A stretch of DNA of 61,428 nucleotides from a bacterium (lineage in GTDB: Bacteria > Patescibacteriota > Minisyncoccia > Phycocordibacterales > UBA6899). The DNA is taken from assembly GCA_043743715.1 (NCBI GenBank), contig JAYTWK010000039.1:1-61428 (forward strand), given 5' to 3'. The notes beneath the pieces are model-generated. The model saw only the letters and a program-made list of their open reading frames with translations. It did not search any database and had not been told where the DNA came from. The position numbers and the translations under genes were made by a program. This document shows positions 53,223 to 60,265 of this stretch, piece by piece (positions within the stretch are counted from its first letter, which is position 1; each line of letters starts with the position of its first letter).

Positions 53223-53295
53223 GGGCCGTTAGCTCATCTGGTAGAGCACCGCATTTGCAATGCGGGGGTGGCAGGTTCGAGTCCTGTACGGTCCA
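53223..53295 (+). tRNA. tRNA-Ala (anticodon UGC)
   Basis: Acceptor GGGCCGT/ACGGTCC with the G3:U70 alanine identity pair, anticodon loop TTTGCAA and T-loop GGTTCGAGTCC. No CCA is encoded. Confidence 0.9.
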
Positions 53296-53297
53296 CA
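53279..53297 (+). repeat. attL-like direct repeat (3' end of tRNA-Ala)
   Basis: GAGTCCTGTACGGTCCACA, identical 19/19 to 60134-60152. Confidence 0.85.
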
Positions 53298-53461
53298 AAA
53301 TTAATAAGTCCGCACTCAGCGGACTTATTAATTTTGTGTTGTAATCGCGTTCGCGCGAACCTTTTTTGAGAGGAATGAACAAGGGTAACTCAGGCACCCC
53401 CGCTCGCTCCGCTCGTCGCCCCTCGGCATCTCCGGCTCCCGATTTTTTCCGCCCCGCCATA
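53294..53461. repeat. left ~170-bp terminal inverted repeat; its outer 45 nt form a 20-bp-stem hairpin that also serves as the tRNA-Ala terminator
   Basis: The reverse complement aligns with 59849-60019 at roughly 90 percent identity by eye. The hairpin is CACAAAATTAATAAGTCCGC-ACTCA-GCGGACTTATTAATTTTGTG. Confidence 0.8.
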
Positions 53462-53515
53462 CTTTAAATCAAGAAAGCGTTTCGCTTACCTTAATGCATC
53501 TCCTTTCAACATAGA

Positions 53516-53541
53516 AAGATATTTCTATATAGAAATATCTT
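53516..53541. promoter_or_regulatory. 26-bp perfect palindrome (C-box-like operator) overlapping a TACAAT -10 upstream of the XRE gene
   Basis: AAGATATTTCTAT|ATAGAAATATCTT. TACAAT lies at 53541-53546 and the ATG at 53560. Confidence 0.6.
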
Positions 53542-53559
53542 ACAATTATGTTATCCTAA

Positions 53560-53778
53560 ATGCAATCAACTATGGGGGATATTTCTGTTAAGTTTGGAAA
53601 GCGGGTTAAAGAAATCCGTGTTAAGAAGGGTTTTTCGCAAGGCAGTCTTGCGAAGATTTTAGGGGTACACCCATCTGATATTAGTGGCATAGAGCGAGGC
53701 AAAAGGAATATGTCACTGAAGAACATTGAAAGACTGGCAAAAGCACTTAATGTTACGATTCAAGCGCTGATTAGCTGA
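53560..53778 (+). CDS. XRE-family HTH regulator, probable RM controller (C) protein
   Basis: 72 aa. FGKRVKEIRVKKGFSQGSLAKILGVHPSDISGIERGKRN is a canonical HTH_3 domain, positioned just upstream of an RM gene pair. Confidence 0.8.
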   Translation: MQSTMGDISVKFGKRVKEIRVKKGFSQGSLAKILGVHPSDISGIERGKRNMSLKNIERLAKALNVTIQALIS

Positions 53779-53876: not shown

Positions 53877-55733
53877 ATGTTGAATGAACGGATTACCGAA
53901 AATCTTGTGCGCGATCGTTTGCGCAAATTGAAATACTATGACAGTGAGGCGGTTACGATTGAGGAACAACGGAGTGACGTGGCTGCGATTAAACGACTTT
54001 TGCGTGGAGCGAGCAAGACTGGCGGCGTTGGTTCTGGGTATCCCGAATTTATTATTACGACAAGCGCAACGCCTGATTTTATTTTTATTATCGAGTGTAA
54101 GGCTGACGCCAAAAAACACCAAAGTAAAACATTTGATCAGGTTAAGGATTTTGCTGTTGATGGAATATTGCATTATGCAAAGTCACTCTCCAGAGAATTC
54201 AACATTATTGCCGTTGCAATAAGTGGACAAACAAAAGCTGACCAAAAATTTTCCGCCTTTATTCACCCAAAGCTCAGCAAGGAGGCAAAAATATTATGCA
54301 ATAAATCTGGAAAGCCACTGGATGAGCTCATTTCATTAGATGATCTAATTTCCCTTGGGAGTTACGACCCCTCAGTTGAGAAGCAACGACACGACGACCT
54401 AATGGCATTTTCTCGTGAATTACATGACTTCATGAGAGATCATGCAAAACTTACCGAAAGCGAAAAACCTCTTTTGGTGAGTGGCACACTTATCGCCCTA
54501 AGAAATGAACCTTTTGCAAAAAGTTTTGTGAACTACAAGCCTTCAGAATTGCAGAAAGCTTGGCTTAGAGTGATAAAAGAAGAAATAGAAAAGGCAGACA
54601 TACCAAACTCAAAAAAGGACAACATGGCCCAACCCTATTCTTCGATAGCCGTACACCCTGAGTTGGGTAAGCCCACTAAGGTTTACCCTTATGGAGTTTT
54701 GCGAGAGCTTATTCAAATGCTAAACAATAGGGTCTGGCCTTTTCTCAGTATTTATCATGACTTTGATGTTGTGGGGCAATTTTACGGTGAATTTTTAAAA
54801 TACACTGGAGGCGACAAGAAGGCGCTTGGAATTGTTTTGACGCCCCGCCATATAACAGAACTCTTCGCTTCCTTGGCAAACTTAAATAAAAAATCCAGAG
54901 TCCTTGATATTTGCTGCGGGACGGGCGGGTTTCTTATTTCATCCATGACGATGATGATTAAACAGGCGATGAACAAACGTGAAATTGAATACATCAAGAA
55001 AGAGGGTCTTATTGGCGTTGAACAACAGCCGAATATGTATGCCTTAGCGGCCAGCAATATGATTTTACGTGGCGACGGCAAGGCAAACCTTTATCAGGGG
55101 AGCTGTTTTGATCAAGAAATTACCAAGGAAATCAAGAAACATAAATGCGATACTGGGATGGTTAACCCGCCATACGCGCAAAAAGACGAAGAGTCTCAAG
55201 AGCTCAAGTTTGTTTTTCAGATGTTAAATTTACTGGAAAAAGGGGGCACCGGGATTGCAATTGTTCCCATGTCTTGCGCAATAAATCCGTCTAGTCCTGG
55301 CAGAGAGGAGTTGTTAAAGTATCATACACTTGAAGCAGTGATGTCGATGCCGGATGAATTATTTTATCCGGTGGGTACCGTTACTTGCATTATGGTCTTT
55401 ACTTCGCATGTCCCTCACGGCGAGTCAAACAAAAAGACATGGTTTGGATATTGGAAGGATGATGGTTTTGTAAAAACTAAACACCTAGGTAGAGTTGATT
55501 TAAATGAAACATGGGCCACTATCCGCGAAAGTTGGATTGATGCTTTTCGTAACAGGGATAATATCCCCGGCTTAAGCGTAAAGCAGAAGGTTGGCCCAAA
55601 TGACGAATGGTGTGCTGAGGCATACATGGAAACAGACTACTCAAAATTAACAGAGAAGGACTTCGAAAACACAATTAGAAACTACACGCTGTTTAGGTTA
55701 AACGAACAAGCAGAAAATGATAAAAGTAAGTGA
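53877..55733 (+). CDS. fused PD-ExK endonuclease / gamma-class N6-adenine DNA methyltransferase (BcgI-A-like RM subunit)
   Basis: The N-terminus has GYPEF...PDFIFIIECK. The MTase has motif I VLDICCGTGGFL upstream of motif IV VNPPYA. Confidence 0.8.
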   Translation: MLNERITENLVRDRLRKLKYYDSEAVTIEEQRSDVAAIKRLLRGASKTGGVGSGYPEFIITTSATPDFIFIIECKADAKKHQSKTFDQVKDFAVDGILHYAKSLSREFNIIAVAISGQTKADQKFSAFIHPKLSKEAKILCNKSGKPLDELISLDDLISLGSYDPSVEKQRHDDLMAFSRELHDFMRDHAKLTESEKPLLVSGTLIALRNEPFAKSFVNYKPSELQKAWLRVIKEEIEKADIPNSKKDNMAQPYSSIAVHPELGKPTKVYPYGVLRELIQMLNNRVWPFLSIYHDFDVVGQFYGEFLKYTGGDKKALGIVLTPRHITELFASLANLNKKSRVLDICCGTGGFLISSMTMMIKQAMNKREIEYIKKEGLIGVEQQPNMYALAASNMILRGDGKANLYQGSCFDQEITKEIKKHKCDTGMVNPPYAQKDEESQELKFVFQMLNLLEKGGTGIAIVPMSCAINPSSPGREELLKYHTLEAVMSMPDELFYPVGTVTCIMVFTSHVPHGESNKKTWFGYWKDDGFVKTKHLGRVDLNETWATIRESWIDAFRNRDNIPGLSVKQKVGPNDEWCAEAYMETDYSKLTEKDFENTIRNYTLFRLNEQAENDKSK

Positions 55734-56664
55734 TCTTTTTGACGTCAGATATGGTGTTAACTTAGAGCTCAATAAACTTGAGTTAGATTCGCATGGGGTT
55801 AACTTTGTTTCTCGCACAGCCAAAAACAACGGCGTCTCAGCGAGGGTAAAATTAATCGAGGGGGTGACACCACTGGAAGCAGGATTGATAACTGTTGCTG
55901 GTGGCGGGAGTGTGCTTGAGACCTTTCTTCAACCAGAGCCATTTTACAGTGGACGGGACTTGTATTATTTGCGTCAAAAGGTGGATCTTACTAATGCTCA
56001 AAAACTATACTATTGTCTTTGTATTCGTTCTAATAAATATCGTTACAACTATGGTAGACAAGCCAATCGTACTCTCGGTGACATTGTTGTACCCATCCCG
56101 AGCGATTTACCAAAATGGGTAAGTAGCGAAAAAATTGAAGATTATTCACATGTACAAGGAAGGGTATTGAGTGGCGACGTCGACAATCTTCAAACTCAAA
56201 AATGGAAATGGTTTCGATACGACACCCTTTTTGAGATTAAAAAAGGCAAGCGCCTAACAAAGCAACACATGGTGCAAGGAGAGACGTTATTTATTGGCTC
56301 AACCGACACAAAAAATGGATTGACAGCGCGCATAGGGCAAGCACCAATTCATAGTCAAAATACAATTTCTATTTCCTATAACGGGAGTGTTGCGGAGGCG
56401 TTTTATCAACCCGAACCTTACTGGGCCACAGACGACGTTAACGTGTTGTATCCAAAATTTAGCTTGAATCCATTCATCGGTTTATTTTTGTGTACAGTTA
56501 TTAAGCAAGAAAAATATCGTTATAATTATGGAAGAAAATGGCACCTAGGGCGCATGAACGAATCATTAATAAAGCTTCCCGCAACAACCGACGGTACGCC
56601 TGATTGGAGATATATGGAAAATTATGTTAAGCACCTCCACTTTTCTGCTGGAGTAGAATCCTAG
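55717..56664 (+). CDS. specificity (S) subunit with two paralogous target-recognition halves
   Basis: Overlaps the upstream gene by 17 nt. The halves start LFDVRYG / LFEIKKGKRLT and end YRYNYGRQANRTLGDIVVPIP / YRYNYGRKWHLGRMNESLIKLP. Confidence 0.7.
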   Translation: MIKVSDLFDVRYGVNLELNKLELDSHGVNFVSRTAKNNGVSARVKLIEGVTPLEAGLITVAGGGSVLETFLQPEPFYSGRDLYYLRQKVDLTNAQKLYYCLCIRSNKYRYNYGRQANRTLGDIVVPIPSDLPKWVSSEKIEDYSHVQGRVLSGDVDNLQTQKWKWFRYDTLFEIKKGKRLTKQHMVQGETLFIGSTDTKNGLTARIGQAPIHSQNTISISYNGSVAEAFYQPEPYWATDDVNVLYPKFSLNPFIGLFLCTVIKQEKYRYNYGRKWHLGRMNESLIKLPATTDGTPDWRYMENYVKHLHFSAGVES

Positions 56665-56745: not shown

Positions 56746-58335
56746 GTGCCCACCACAGCAAATAAAACAAAGACAAATAAACTCACGGTCTATCTCATCA
56801 AGCCCGAGTTTTCAGCGCTTGAAGATATTGTTGATCCTACAACCCGCATACAAGATATTGACGGTGTGGGAACGTTTCTCTTTGAAAATTCACACACGAA
56901 CATACCTAATTGGGTAAAAGGTTTTTTTGGTTCAACATTGTCCGAAGATCTTCAAATATTTACAGCAAGTGCCCGAGGAATGCTGATCGTGCCAATCTCT
57001 CTGAATAATACGATAATTACTTTTGCCGTATCGTTCGGAGTCGGACGTTTTTTACTGAAAGAAGGCGTTGCTGAAGAGCGCTTTGGGCTCAAGGTTGTAT
57101 TGAATTCAACGGGCGAAGATGGTTTTCGTAGTATCGACAAAACTACTCTTGGCTCTGTCCCCAAACATAGTCGTGAGCAAATGAGCAGAGATGTCGCACC
57201 TTCCGACTTCGGGATAGACATTGAGCAAGACCTTGTGGGACTTGTAACTGCAAGATCAAATGATCAAGATTTCGGAAAAATTATCACAGGAAGAGATGCA
57301 CTCAACCTTTCTGTAAAAGTCGATGTATCCAATATTGTTGATTTTCTTAAGCATTGCTATGAACGGTACTTAAGCGACGACTATAAAGTAAACTTCAGTT
57401 GGATTGATCAAATTTCAGAAGTTCGAAACAAGCTAAAAGAGGAGGAACTTTTTTCTGCGGTCGTTGGCCGTATTAACAATAATCAGCTTGATAAGATTTG
57501 GATGGCTGTCCCTGAGGTAATAAATTGGGCTGATATTCGCGGCTTCCGATATTTGAGAGCAAAGCAAGCAGACCTAGAGGATGATCTTGGCATCGAGAGA
57601 TTCTTGGAGTCTCTCGATGGCAGACAACTCACAATAGATGAACTCAAAGATGCGCCAATCTATGTTATTTCAGCTCAGAATGATGACACCATTATGCGCT
57701 GGTCAGCTTTTCGTTGTGTCTATGCTGAAATTGAACTTGAAGGAAAAACGTATATTCTCAACAATGGAAGGTGGTACGAAATTGCGAGTGATTTTACTCA
57801 AGAAGTGCAAAGAGATTTTGCGAGTGTACCAGATTCAACCATTGCGTTGCCTGATTATATCTCCGGAGACGAATTAGAATATAACACAACCGCATCTGGG
57901 ACCCTCGCGGGAGCGTGTTGTATGGATCAGAAGTTAATTAACCATGGAGGAGGTCATAATAAAATTGAATTTTGTGATATATTCACTAATGATAAGAAAA
58001 TAATTCACGTAAAGAAATATGGCGGATCAAGTATTTTGAGCCATCTCTTTGCGCAAGGAATGGTTTCGGGTGAACTGTTCATTGGTGATGAAGAATTTCG
58101 TCGCAAGCTAAATGTTCATTTACCTAGAACTCATAAACTTTCAAATATTCGGACTCGGCCCAATCCTTCCGAGTACGAAGTCGTCTACGCAATCATCAGC
58201 AAATCAACTGACCCGCTCGACATACCATTTTTCAGTAAGGTAAGTTTGAGAAATTCTGCAAAACGACTCAAGACACTGGGGTATAACGTTTCAAAGAAGA
58301 AAATAGTCAAAACTGCCACTACAATGCACCTCTAG
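56746..58335 (+). CDS. TIGR04141/DUF6119-like protein of unknown function, possible nuclease
   Basis: 529 aa with a GTG start. The N-terminus KLTVYLIKPEF and the size match my recollection of the family. The C-terminal MDQK...IEFCDIF...IIHVKK looks like a variant PD-(D/E)xK core. Confidence 0.55.
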   Translation: MPTTANKTKTNKLTVYLIKPEFSALEDIVDPTTRIQDIDGVGTFLFENSHTNIPNWVKGFFGSTLSEDLQIFTASARGMLIVPISLNNTIITFAVSFGVGRFLLKEGVAEERFGLKVVLNSTGEDGFRSIDKTTLGSVPKHSREQMSRDVAPSDFGIDIEQDLVGLVTARSNDQDFGKIITGRDALNLSVKVDVSNIVDFLKHCYERYLSDDYKVNFSWIDQISEVRNKLKEEELFSAVVGRINNNQLDKIWMAVPEVINWADIRGFRYLRAKQADLEDDLGIERFLESLDGRQLTIDELKDAPIYVISAQNDDTIMRWSAFRCVYAEIELEGKTYILNNGRWYEIASDFTQEVQRDFASVPDSTIALPDYISGDELEYNTTASGTLAGACCMDQKLINHGGGHNKIEFCDIFTNDKKIIHVKKYGGSSILSHLFAQGMVSGELFIGDEEFRRKLNVHLPRTHKLSNIRTRPNPSEYEVVYAIISKSTDPLDIPFFSKVSLRNSAKRLKTLGYNVSKKKIVKTATTMHL

Positions 58336-58434: not shown

Positions 58435-59118
58435 ATGGACAATCCTAAACCTTCTGAACTCGAAATTGAGCCTACCGGCGAGGCTAATACTAGCGCTCCA
58501 GTCACTCTCCCGATAAATGACGCAGTTGAGCCACCCCAGACAGAGCCAACACAAGCACCCACAGAGCATGTCCCGACACCCGAAACGCCTCAAACTGAGC
58601 CATTATCTGAGCCGTTACAAACCTCGCCCGAAACCCCAACGCCTCATTTGCCGGCAGATGAGGCGTTCCCGGAATCTGCACCTGAACCCACAGCCGAGGC
58701 GCCCAAGCTGGAAACTCCAGCGCCATCATCAGCCCCAACCCAAAACACAAACACGCCTGAGGAGTCACCTCGAACCCCACCACCAACACAACAAGGCACA
58801 GCACAACCCGAACCACCGCCCACTCCTGCATCAGCTCCCGCATCCCTGCCCGCACAAGCGCCCACGGAAACTCCCCAAAATATTCTCATGCTTCTGCTCA
58901 CCAAAGCACGGCTTGTCACCCAACTCCGCAAACACAAAAAACTCATAAAAATTATGGGGCTGTTTGCAAAGAAATCACATATCACTAATGACGATGTCGA
59001 GAAACTCTTGCACGTCTCCGACGCAACCGCACTCCGCTATCTCACCCAACTCAAAAAGGAGAACAAGATCGTACAAAATGGAAAGACTGGGCAAGGTGTC
59101 ACGTACTCCAAACGCTAA
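58435..59118 (+). CDS. Pro/Thr/Glu-rich protein with a C-terminal winged-helix DNA-binding domain
   Basis: About 150 aa of low complexity, then IMGLFAKKSHITNDDVEKLLHVSDATALRYLTQLKKENKIVQNGKTGQGVTY. An alternative short form could start near MLLL. Confidence 0.5.
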   Translation: MDNPKPSELEIEPTGEANTSAPVTLPINDAVEPPQTEPTQAPTEHVPTPETPQTEPLSEPLQTSPETPTPHLPADEAFPESAPEPTAEAPKLETPAPSSAPTQNTNTPEESPRTPPPTQQGTAQPEPPPTPASAPASLPAQAPTETPQNILMLLLTKARLVTQLRKHKKLIKIMGLFAKKSHITNDDVEKLLHVSDATALRYLTQLKKENKIVQNGKTGQGVTYSKR

Positions 59119-59848
59119 CGTACACTGAGTCTTCCGACCACGTCGGGTCAGCTCTCGCACCAACTATCAGCCGTACCCCACACTTGGATTCCTCCGGCCT
59201 CGGGCATTTCCGCTAGGGCGATCCCTTTCTCACCGGGTGAGCGCCGCCCCGAACGAAGGCACCAAACTCTGATAGCGAAAGCGACACAACATACTCGGTA
59301 ATGAAAACAGGGTTGGGGGGTTGTGCGAGTGGCTGCTTCTGAAGGTCCTCGAACGAAGCCAACGACTCAAACGCTAACAGAGCTCTGAGAGACCCTAACC
59401 GCAAACTACCACTACGAAGAAGGGCCCGACGCTGGGGGGAAGGGTCGGCCCTCCCCCCAACTAGAGGCGGAGTGTGCCTCGCCGGTTCGAAGCCTCCATG
59501 GTCTAACGCCTCATCTACCGGCAAATGAGGCGTTCAGCTCAAACCAACGGCTCATATAGGCGAGGCGACCGCCCGCACACTGGCATCTAGGCGCGAGTAG
59601 CCCTAGCGGAAATGCCTGAGGCCGGATGGCCGAGGGTGCACCAAGTCCAACAACCTCTCACTCCAATCGCCGCACCGAGGTCGGAGGGCGATCACGGGAG
59701 TCGAATCGGAGAGAGGAATGGGAGGCGGCGCACAAACGTATGGAGGAAGCACCCCCGACTGACACACCCGAGAGGAGTGGGCTCTGCCACTCCGGCAAGG
59801 GTGTGACAGAGCCCCTTCGGCAATCTCCTTCCATATTCGCAGTTTTCT
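59119..59848. other. GC-rich non-coding module with nested long-range helices
   Basis: No credible ORF. A sampled 60-nt line (59401-59460) has 40 G+C, versus 23 for a line in the RM gene. Confidence 0.6.
59193..59626 (+). repeat. 27-bp inverted repeat pair enclosing 380 nt (long-range RNA helix or MITE-like TIRs)
   Basis: 59193-59219 pairs with 59600-59626 at 26 Watson-Crick positions plus one G-T, which is a G-U wobble only on the plus strand. Confidence 0.75.
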
Positions 59849-60019
59849 TATGGCGGGGTGGAAAAAATCGGGAGCCGGAGATGCCGAGGGGCGACGAGCG
59901 AAGCGAGCGGGGGTGCCTGAGTCTTCATTGTCCATTCCTCTCGAAAAAGGTTCGTGCGAACGCGATCACAACACCACAAAATTAATAAGTCCGCATGCTG
60001 CGGGCTTATTAATTTTGTG
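59849..60019. repeat. right ~170-bp terminal inverted repeat with terminal 20-bp-stem hairpin
   Basis: Mirror copy of 53294-53461. Hairpin 59975-60019 is CACAAAATTAATAAGTCCGC-ATGCT-GCGGGCTTATTAATTTTGTG. Confidence 0.8.
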
Positions 60020-60133
60020 AATCGTAAGCAAAACAACTGCTTGTTTTGCGTCAGGACGAGAAGAGGTTTTCCCATATTTCTAAGGATTTTTAATCCGAAG
60101 AAATGGGAAACCTACACTGTTGCTTTAGGCAAA

Positions 60134-60152
60134 GAGTCCTGTACGGTCCACA
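60134..60152 (+). repeat. attR-like direct repeat (copy of the tRNA-Ala 3' end)
   Basis: GAGTCCTGTACGGTCCACA, 19/19 identical to 53279-53297. Confidence 0.85.
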
Positions 60153-60265
60153 GCAACTAAAACGCCTTTAGAAATTGGAAGTACTCAAAGTGGTGCAGCT
60201 GAAACCGCGAGCTGGGGTCGCGAACACTTACATTTTCTGGCCTGCAAGCAAGATCTGTAAATTTC

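Follow-up and report, generated by a model that had tools for sequence, protein, structure and literature searches.

Analysis of a 61,428-nt window (contig JAYTWK010000039.1 of assembly GCA_043743715.1, Patescibacteria) showed that it contains a full-length gene of the DUF6119/TIGR04141 family, located last in a restriction-modification (RM) cassette that was inserted at a tRNA gene. In other genomes, genes of this family are also preferentially linked to RM genes of several types. We tentatively propose, with a little less than even confidence, that DUF6119 acts against phages or plasmids as a single-protein effector, spreads horizontally together with RM cassettes but functions as a module of its own, and has a C-terminal PD-(D/E)xK-like nuclease. 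The gene is located as follows:

56746–58335, + strand: DUF6119/TIGR04141 family gene, GTG start, 529 amino acids (aa); supported by the listing of open reading frames (ORFs), full-length matches to hidden Markov models (HMMs) and the AlphaFold2 model

Identification of the Gene and Its Family

An earlier note on this DNA, made without database searches, placed a 529-aa ORF with a GTG start at 56746–58335 on the forward strand, and exactly this frame is present in the ORF listing. Both peptides quoted there were found in the translation, namely NKLTVYLIKPEFSALEDIV at residues 11–29 and CCMDQKLINHGGGHNKIEFCDIFTNDKKIIHVKKYGGS at residues 391–428. The family named in the note was also correct: HMM searches gave matches far beyond chance to both models. 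For NCBIfam TIGR04141, the E-value was 1.6e-148 and the score 495 bits (cut-off 35), the match covering residues 13–520 of the protein and positions 1–516 of the 516 in the profile; for Pfam DUF6119 (PF19614), the values were E = 3e-141 and 472 bits (cut-off 27). In the homolog alignment, the start position of the homologs is that of the GTG (consensus 'MP.....KTN.L.IY.IKP'). The GTG start is thus supported because the homologs begin at the same place. The ORF is a real, full-length member of the family and an ordinary gene call, and, judged by sequence, DUF6119/TIGR04141 is the only family to which the protein appears to belong.

The statement that the family has no assigned function holds as well, since the literature, PADLOC-DB 2.0.0, the PDB and NCBIfam give no described role. 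Only passing mentions were found in the literature under DUF6119, TIGR04141, PF19614 and 'sporadically distributed protein'. None of the families in PADLOC-DB 2.0.0 (5,027 models, E ≤ 0.01) matched the protein, and a sequence search of the PDB, both with the protein and with a 64-sequence profile, revealed no relevant relative. The NCBIfam name of TIGR04141 (June 2026) is still the placeholder 'sporadically distributed protein'.

Linkage to Restriction-Modification Genes

In order to characterize the gene context of the family, 80 loci from species-representative genomes were analyzed with 10-kb flanks. Crude ORF calls were used, and the family gene was located in 78 of the 80 loci. RM genes were counted using local HMMs seeded from BLAST clusters, of which the modification ('M') model also takes in some specificity (S) subunits. 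RM M/S genes accounted for 38 of 212 neighbors at offsets −3 to −1, compared with 8 of 498 at offsets of 6 or more in either direction (odds ratio 13.4, p = 2e-14). The distribution was directional: 7, 17 and 14 RM modification genes were found at offsets −3, −2 and −1, and 4, 4 and 1 at +1, +2 and +3. Most of the upstream RM M/S genes (33/38) lie on the same strand as the family gene, and the upstream gene on that strand ends at most 25 nt away in 27 of 57 loci.

Domain searches with the pooled −1/−2 neighbors (143 proteins, 75 loci) gave the same picture. The Pfam matches included N6_Mtase (14), Eco57I (10), Methylase_S (9), N6_N4_Mtase (7), HsdM_N (5), ResIII (5) and HSDR_N_2 (4), and the PADLOC matches included MTase_I (14), Specificity_I (9) and MTase_II (8); resolvases, ParB-methylases, RadC and LexA-like genes were found among these neighbors too. 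The pooled +1/+2 neighbors contained five S subunits, four HsdR, GmrSD, AbiEii-type ATPases, reverse transcriptases and RhuM. RM adjacency, which had been noticed for the single gene in the window, thus holds for the family in general, with a clear direction and strong statistical support, and the test of neighborhood enrichment suggested in the earlier note was positive for RM. This linkage is frequent but not obligatory.

On at least three RefSeq plasmids, namely Actibacterium pNS6001, Mameliella alba pKUB257 and Paracoccus albus p3, the family gene is embedded in the operon hsdM-hsdS-DUF6119-hsdR-SprT, in which adjacent genes abut or overlap by 1–4 nt. The operons of pKUB257 and p3 have AbiE and PIN-HTH (helix–turn–helix) pairs on their flanks. 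In about nine further genome loci, the family gene is located between RM genes. Other plasmid copies lie beside TIR, deaminase and ATPase genes or directly after a giant NACHT protein.

In each of the three plasmid operons, hsdR shares its last 4 nt with the gene for a SprT-family zinc metalloprotease (L085, 9091–9807; L098, 10751–11467; L100, 10880–11596). Since this overlap is present in all three, the conserved unit is hsdM-hsdS-DUF6119-hsdR-SprT, and the SprT protease may be a further embedded accessory gene.

The closest relatives of the window protein (63–75% identity) were found in five different contexts: beside a D12 methylase, an AlwI-type enzyme and AIPR; 3' of a type I hsdR-hsdM-hsdS set; in the vicinity of a type III system; with a IIG-like enzyme on one side and a GmrSD-like gene on the other; and on an integrative element. 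Across the family, the partner RM systems belong to types I, IIG, IIS-like and III. Because close relatives stand beside different systems, the family gene behaves as an independent, self-contained module, that is, as a cassette that preferentially lands in, or stays in, RM operons and other variable defense or mobile regions. No conserved partner gene was found, as BLAST clustering of all neighbors yielded only RM, recombinase and HTH families.

Two simpler descriptions of this linkage were rejected. DUF6119 does not replace the R subunit: most type I contexts retain HsdR, to which the DUF6119 gene is thus an addition, and the type IIG enzyme of the window has its own PD...ExK motif. Nor does the same RM family always accompany DUF6119, since the RM enzyme of the window and the other RM neighbors share only methylase-domain similarity at 19–25% identity.

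Predicted Structure of the Protein

Modeling of the full-length protein using AlphaFold2 with 64 homologs led to a model with a predicted local distance difference test score (pLDDT) of 86.3 and a predicted template modeling score (pTM) of 0.75. Three regions were distinguished in it: a beta-rich N-terminal part (residues ~1–225), a middle part (~226–361) and a C-terminal domain (362–529). When modeled alone, the C-terminal domain reached a pLDDT of 94.2 and a pTM of 0.89. The corresponding features are:

57829–58332, + strand: C-terminal domain, residues 362–529, with a predicted restriction-endonuclease-like alpha-beta core (domain-only AlphaFold2 model)
57967–58014, + strand: candidate active-site stretch E408-F-C-D411...H421-V-K423 (conservation; E376, D394 and Q437 lie outside this stretch)
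56746–57828, + strand: N-terminal plus middle regions, residues 1–361, beta-rich (secondary structure of the model)

The secondary structure elements of the C-terminal model are a helix (376–386), strands 390–392, 397–400, 405–408, 412–414 and 418–424, a helix (428–447) and a strand (478–485). The alpha-beta-beta-beta-alpha-beta-like order of elements of the restriction-endonuclease fold is seen in this predicted domain. D411 is placed just before strand 412–414, H421 and K423 lie in strand 418–424, and Q437 is on helix 428–447. In a divergent alignment of 51 sequences (26–51% identity), E376, E408, D411 and Q437 were among the invariant residues, while D394, C410, H421, K423 and Y425 were conserved in at least 90% of the sequences.

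A search with the C-terminal model against the PDB using Foldseek revealed weak matches, and seven of the top 11 were nucleases of the PD-(D/E)xK fold from three families, namely CdiA-CT DNase, Hef/XPF/Mus81 and SfsA. The values were E = 0.015, probability 0.60 and query TM-score (TMq) 0.27 for CdiA-CT (4zqu_A), E = 0.035 for Hef (1j24) and TMq 0.32 for SfsA (4dav). Matches of the full-length model to a sliding clamp, a phytochrome and TcpA were dismissed (TM-score ~0.1).

The earlier note had read the C-terminal peptide as a variant PD-(D/E)xK core with a D/E...D-x11-HVK arrangement. The D/E, D and HVK residues are present, but the spacing is different: the true arrangement is E408-x2-D411-x9-H421-V-K423, that is, D-x9-HVK or, equally, D-x11-K. 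The reading as a nuclease core agrees with the predicted topology, the invariant acidic residues and the nearly invariant lysine, whereas it gained no support from any of the sequence and profile tests, and significant structural similarity was not obtained. Thus, a nuclease fold of the C-terminal domain is suggested by the model and is plausible. The invariant residues E408 and E376 could supply the carboxylate that is missing from the (D/E)xK motif.

For residues 1–361, invariant columns of the divergent alignment are W56, G98, F113-G114-L115, G182, P256, W319, C324 and W343, and no significant structural match to this region was found in the PDB using Foldseek. As no structural relative of these N-terminal two-thirds was detected in the PDB, they may sense by a new mechanism. 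A single structural match reached significance, and it came from the BFVD database, where a phage PTXU04 protein annotated as 'Exonuclease' was found with E = 6e-4 and probability 0.99 over ~300 columns (TM-score 0.21–0.34). Weaker matches of the N-terminal two-thirds were a phage 'Recombination associated protein' and E. coli RdgC (PDB 2owl, probability 0.18); phage homologs of RdgC are commonly annotated as 'exonuclease'. Homology to RdgC (PF04381) at the sequence level was rejected: hhalign, run against an alignment of 13 RdgC sequences from E. coli and divergent phages, returned a probability of 0.8%, and this in the wrong region, and Pfam revealed no RdgC match at E ≤ 10.

The RM Cassette and Its Insertion at tRNA-Ala

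In the window, the cassette is encoded on one strand in the order C protein, type IIG restriction-methylase, S subunit and, last, DUF6119:

53560–53778, + strand: HTH controller (C) protein (Pfam HTH_3, E = 1.4e-15; PADLOC Control_protein, E = 2.6e-19)
53877–55733, + strand: type IIG restriction enzyme-methyltransferase, 618 aa (PADLOC REase_MTase_IIG, E = 2.3e-122, full length; Pfam N6_Mtase, E = 4e-29)
55717–56664, + strand: specificity (S) subunit (Pfam Methylase_S, E = 3.7e-21, two stretches; PADLOC Specificity_II, E = 3.7e-48)

The PD...ExK motif of the IIG enzyme is visible at its N-terminus as 'PDFIFIIECK', and the start of the S-subunit gene overlaps the enzyme gene by 17 nt. The DUF6119 gene lies downstream of the S-subunit gene on the same strand, as had been stated, but at a distance of 81 nt and not 82 nt. 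No promoter-like or terminator-like site was found in this 81-nt gap, and the position of the DUF6119 gene is operon-like.

The cassette is part of an island at a tRNA gene with the following features:

53223–53296, + strand: tRNA-Ala(TGC), the integration target (ARAGORN and Rfam; in the sister genome, the same tRNA is followed by the right-flank sequence)
53279–53297, + strand: left 19-nt direct repeat at the tRNA 3' end, att-like, GAGTCCTGTACGGTCCACA, with an exact second copy at 60134–60152
60134–60152, + strand: right 19-nt direct repeat, right end of the ~6.9-kb insertion (repeat search; homology to the sister genome restarts at 60196)
53287–53461, no strand: left ~175-nt block, a hairpin plus 137 nt (inverted copy at the other end of the island)
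59849–60026, no strand: right-hand copy of the ~175-nt block, in inverted orientation (repeats I1 and I2)

A comparison with the sister Patescibacteria genome GCA_043744595.1 revealed synteny through uvrA-uvrC-ddl-tRNA-Ala-SLT, the flanks having 78–81% nucleotide identity. The UvrA protein of the window is 96% identical to that of the sister genome and 81–85% identical to proteins of Parcubacteria, Lloydbacteria and Paceibacterota, which assigns the host to the Patescibacteria. In the sister genome (L096, 15646–15853), only 67 nt separate tRNA-Ala from the sequence matching positions 60196–60262 of the window. Because this site is uninterrupted, the ~6.9 kb from 53298 to about 60152 are an insertion at the 3' end of the tRNA. 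The two genomes form an insertion/empty-site pair at tRNA-Ala and document a clean tRNA-linked insertion with an RM cassette in Patescibacteria. No integrase ORF was found inside the ~6.9-kb insertion. The GC content is 0.40–0.42 over 53.5–58.3 kb and 0.48–0.50 in the flanks. The island location assumed in the earlier note was thus borne out directly by the empty site, but the term 'defense island' was too strong, as the insertion contains one RM system and DUF6119 and no Abi or CBASS genes.

The ~175-nt block lies directly 3' of the tRNA, and its hairpin has a perfect 20-bp stem. Its inverted repeats are I1 (137 nt, 89%) and I2 (56 nt, 86%), and the hairpin arm occurs only twice in the window, at the two ends of the island. 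These blocks could represent the element's terminal inverted repeats or, alternatively, a terminator region that was duplicated. A palindrome of 18+18 nt (53511–53546, ATAGAAAGATATTTCTAT / ATAGAAATATCTTACAAT) lies 14 nt 5' of the C-protein gene and resembles a C-box operator through which the C protein would autoregulate the RM cassette.

The segment 58300–59985 of the island has a GC content of 0.54–0.61, far above that of the RM/DUF6119 part. It contains an ORF (58435–59118), whose N-terminal half is rich in Pro, Thr and Glu and whose C-terminus is weakly winged-helix-like, two similar 30-nt palindromes (58638–58667 and 59505–59534) and a 27-nt inverted repeat pair (59193–59219 / 59600–59626). 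Rfam scans of this GC-rich part revealed no Rfam family and only terminator-like hairpin noise. The island appears to be a mosaic because the high-GC segment has neither an Rfam family nor a clear coding function.

Proposed Function and Alternative Explanations

In the mechanism that we tentatively favor for the mobile single-protein effector, the N-terminal two-thirds (~360 residues) would recognize a nucleic-acid feature or an infection cue, and the C-terminal 170 residues would be a catalytic domain of the restriction-endonuclease-like, PD-(D/E)xK type. With a metal site composed of E376, E408, D411, (H421)-x-K423 and Q437, this domain would cut nucleic acid and serve as a backup or complement to the neighboring RM system. 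Family membership, the insertion, the operon-like position, the linkage to varied RM partners and the conservation pattern were observed directly, while cleavage chemistry, sensing by the N-terminal part and the role in defense are inferred; we consider the protein a credible new defense candidate. The defense function would be assigned through guilt by association, and published precedents support the logic of an independent defense module: two genes embedded in a type I operon of Vibrio cholerae are an independent type IV system (PMC11411939), and genes embedded in Hma systems showed a high rate of confirmed defenses on testing (bioRxiv 10.1101/2024.01.29.577857). It is also conceivable, though rather doubtful, that the family constitutes a widespread, so far undescribed type of immune nuclease consisting of one protein, whose ~360-residue sensing module would have a new structure and which would insert into RM operons irrespective of their type and act generically with them. 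Such a nuclease might finish DNA nicked or cut by the RM system or fire when the RM system is disabled, and it may be one of the few defense modules available to small-genome Patescibacteria.

Several results weigh against the interpretation as a defense nuclease. The acidic position of (D/E)xK is occupied by H421, which is itself a cysteine in one member and so is not strictly invariant. Foldseek searches against the PDB gave no match at E ≤ 1e-3 either for the C-terminal model (best E = 0.015, TM-score ≤ 0.32) or for the full-length model. Pfam searches at E ≤ 10 with three fragments found only DUF6119 and a chance match to Maf1, the C-terminal fragment matching DUF6119 alone, and the PDB profile search found no nuclease family. 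The hhalign comparison of the C-terminal domain with 16 HsdR nuclease domains gave a probability of 0.08% and was uninformative. An RM gene within three genes of the family gene was found in only 29 of 78 loci, which is probably an underestimate given the crude ORFs and local HMMs. The family was found in 1 of 50,697 phage records and 28 of 72,556 plasmids, and the PADLOC candidate lists, which follow the same embedding logic, do not include it. Furthermore, the proposed mechanism does not explain how a stand-alone nuclease would spare host DNA.

The operon position is compatible with another explanation, according to which DUF6119 is a PrrC-like guard of the RM system, held inactive by a co-translated RM/methyltransferase complex and turned into a suicide nuclease once a phage anti-restriction protein disables this complex. 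On the three plasmids the gene takes the hsdS-X-hsdR position of PrrC and abuts or overlaps its neighbors, and in the further loci described above it is likewise flanked by RM genes; M/S genes are found preferentially upstream and on the same strand, and co-translation is suggested by the small gaps to the upstream gene. However, the partners are structurally unrelated (type I, IIG, AlwI-type and type III) while the protein stays 54–75% identical, so no co-varying interface is apparent. In addition, the RM enzyme of the window does not recur beside other family members, many copies have no nearby RM gene, and no PrrC/RloC-type ATPase or regulatory module was found using Pfam, NCBIfam and PADLOC. 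We therefore consider such a guard unlikely. Independence from the partner RM type would be accounted for if DUF6119 were a modification-dependent (type IV-like) enzyme, in which the N-terminal and middle domains read modified phage bases and the C-terminal nuclease cuts. It would complement the neighboring RM system, which stops unmodified DNA only, as TgvAB does in the Vibrio type I operon. There is a precedent of type IV systems embedded in type I operons (PMC11411939), GmrSD-type genes adjoin family members, and the invariant W319 and W343 together with Y344, which is nearly invariant in close relatives, could form a base-binding pocket. These aromatic residues may, however, be plain core residues. 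No Pfam or PADLOC match to SRA, EVE, YTH, Mrr, McrB, McrBC, DUF262 or GmrSD DUF262/DUF1524 was found, and Foldseek revealed no structural match to a reader module in the PDB and BFVD, which makes a type IV-like role improbable in our estimation.

A function for the mobile element itself was also considered, namely a nuclease that aids insertion or spread of the RM cassette or element, exclusion of competitors or its own maintenance. It would be in line with the sporadic distribution and high identity across phyla, with copies on conjugative plasmids, on integrative elements and at a prophage end, with the serine and tyrosine recombinases near some copies and with the islet of the window, which has no integrase of its own yet is clearly inserted at a tRNA. 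The gene is nevertheless embedded inside operons and not at element ends, the protein does not resemble known transposases or integrases, and, with completely different contexts from locus to locus, the flanking repeats are not conserved; this role is regarded as distinctly unlikely. Finally, the only significant structural match, to a phage 'Exonuclease' of the kind of annotation common for phage RdgC homologs, and the weak matches to the phage 'Recombination associated protein' and E. coli RdgC could point to a non-catalytic, RdgC-type DNA-binding or recombination-modulating protein, for example one that limits self-damage or recombination after restriction. The TM-scores were 0.16–0.34, the RdgC identity of the matched phage protein could not be confirmed, and the hhalign and Pfam results for RdgC were negative as described above. 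The invariant E/D/K/Q set of the C-terminal domain argues for catalysis, and an RdgC-type role seems very improbable.

Comparison with Known Systems

By analogy with known systems, DUF6119 was classed as a putative nuclease-type accessory defense gene in RM operons that comes from an uncharacterized family and has an uncharacterized N-terminal architecture. PrrC and RloC consist of an N-terminal ABC-type ATPase and a C-terminal anticodon-nuclease domain. Like PrrC (EcoprrI type Ic RM operon) and RloC, DUF6119 on the three plasmids is a single accessory gene between hsdS and hsdR, co-oriented and tightly coupled. Unlike them, it has no ABC-ATPase domain and no PADLOC, Pfam or NCBIfam match to PrrC/RloC; its RM neighbors belong to several classes and are often missing, and although the hsdS/hsdR position also occurs in several genome loci, many others lack it, as does the window, where the gene follows a type IIG system, whereas PrrC is almost exclusively embedded in type I RM (Payne et al., bioRxiv 10.1101/2024.01.29.577857). 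The nested-module genomic behavior of TgvAB and GmrSD-like type IV systems is also seen in DUF6119, and GmrSD-like systems embedded in type I RM or Hma operons work without the nuclease of the host system (PMC11411939; bioRxiv 10.1101/2024.01.29.577857). In contrast to these systems, DUF6119 has no DUF262 or DUF1524/His-Me domains and is a single protein with a predicted PD-(D/E)xK-like C-terminal domain.

The architecture proposed for DUF6119 follows a logic similar to that of Shedu. Shedu (SduA, DUF4263), which is found in defense islands, combines sensing by its N-terminal part with a C-terminal PD-(D/E)xK nuclease in a single protein. DUF6119 differs from it in its larger size, another N-terminal architecture and the H-x-K variant motif; the Shedu model gave no PADLOC match (E ≤ 0.01), PF14082 was not found with Pfam (E ≤ 10), and Shedu was not among the listed Foldseek matches. 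The embedded candidates of PADLOC (HEC and PDC; Payne et al.) were found by the same guilt-by-embedding logic, with a high experimental success rate, but DUF6119 is not among them.

If the defense role is true, a function would be gained for a family of more than 4,000 sequence clusters that at present has no literature, no solved structure and no entry in a defense-finder database, and the guilt-by-embedding rule of RM operons would have another proven case. The conserved hsdM-hsdS-DUF6119-hsdR order on plasmids of culturable Rhodobacterales is a ready experimental system. Candidates of this type are numerous, but DUF6119 stands out as large, well conserved, outside the current defense catalogs and directly testable.

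Size and Distribution of the Family

A word-indexed search revealed 1,704 homologs. The best 120 of them have 54–75% identity, contain only PF19614 and come from very different phyla; for instance, the window protein of Patescibacteria and an Acidobacteria homolog are 64% identical. The distribution across phyla is sporadic. An exhaustive profile search found 4,266 clusters (50% identity) at E ≤ 1e-3, including 2,094 at E ≤ 1e-30. Among the best 150 of the 4,266 cluster representatives, most are 510–570 aa long and a few are truncated; a domain fusion that could give a clue to function was sought in this deep search, and only full-length look-alikes with no added domains were found among these 150. 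A PHROG of unknown function matches the DUF6119 protein.

The sole phage record with a homolog is that of the Pseudomonas phage vB_PaeS-D14B (L084, 5728–7437), in which the gene is located between two integrase genes at the genome end, a position typical of prophage accessory or defense cargo. The copy of Candidatus Binatia (L071, 10001–11587) has an in-frame stop codon and is a probable pseudogene, and shortened family ORFs of 396–469 aa were found in several other loci. The stop codon and the short ORFs are consistent with occasional decay of an accessory gene. A distant member with 31% identity is encoded by Paracoccus aminophilus pAMI8 (L086, 5520–8512), where it has a 4-nt overlap with an upstream hypothetical gene of 446 aa and is also preceded by 'ATP-binding protein' and S8 peptidase genes; this arrangement is a possible multi-gene variant in a sister clade.

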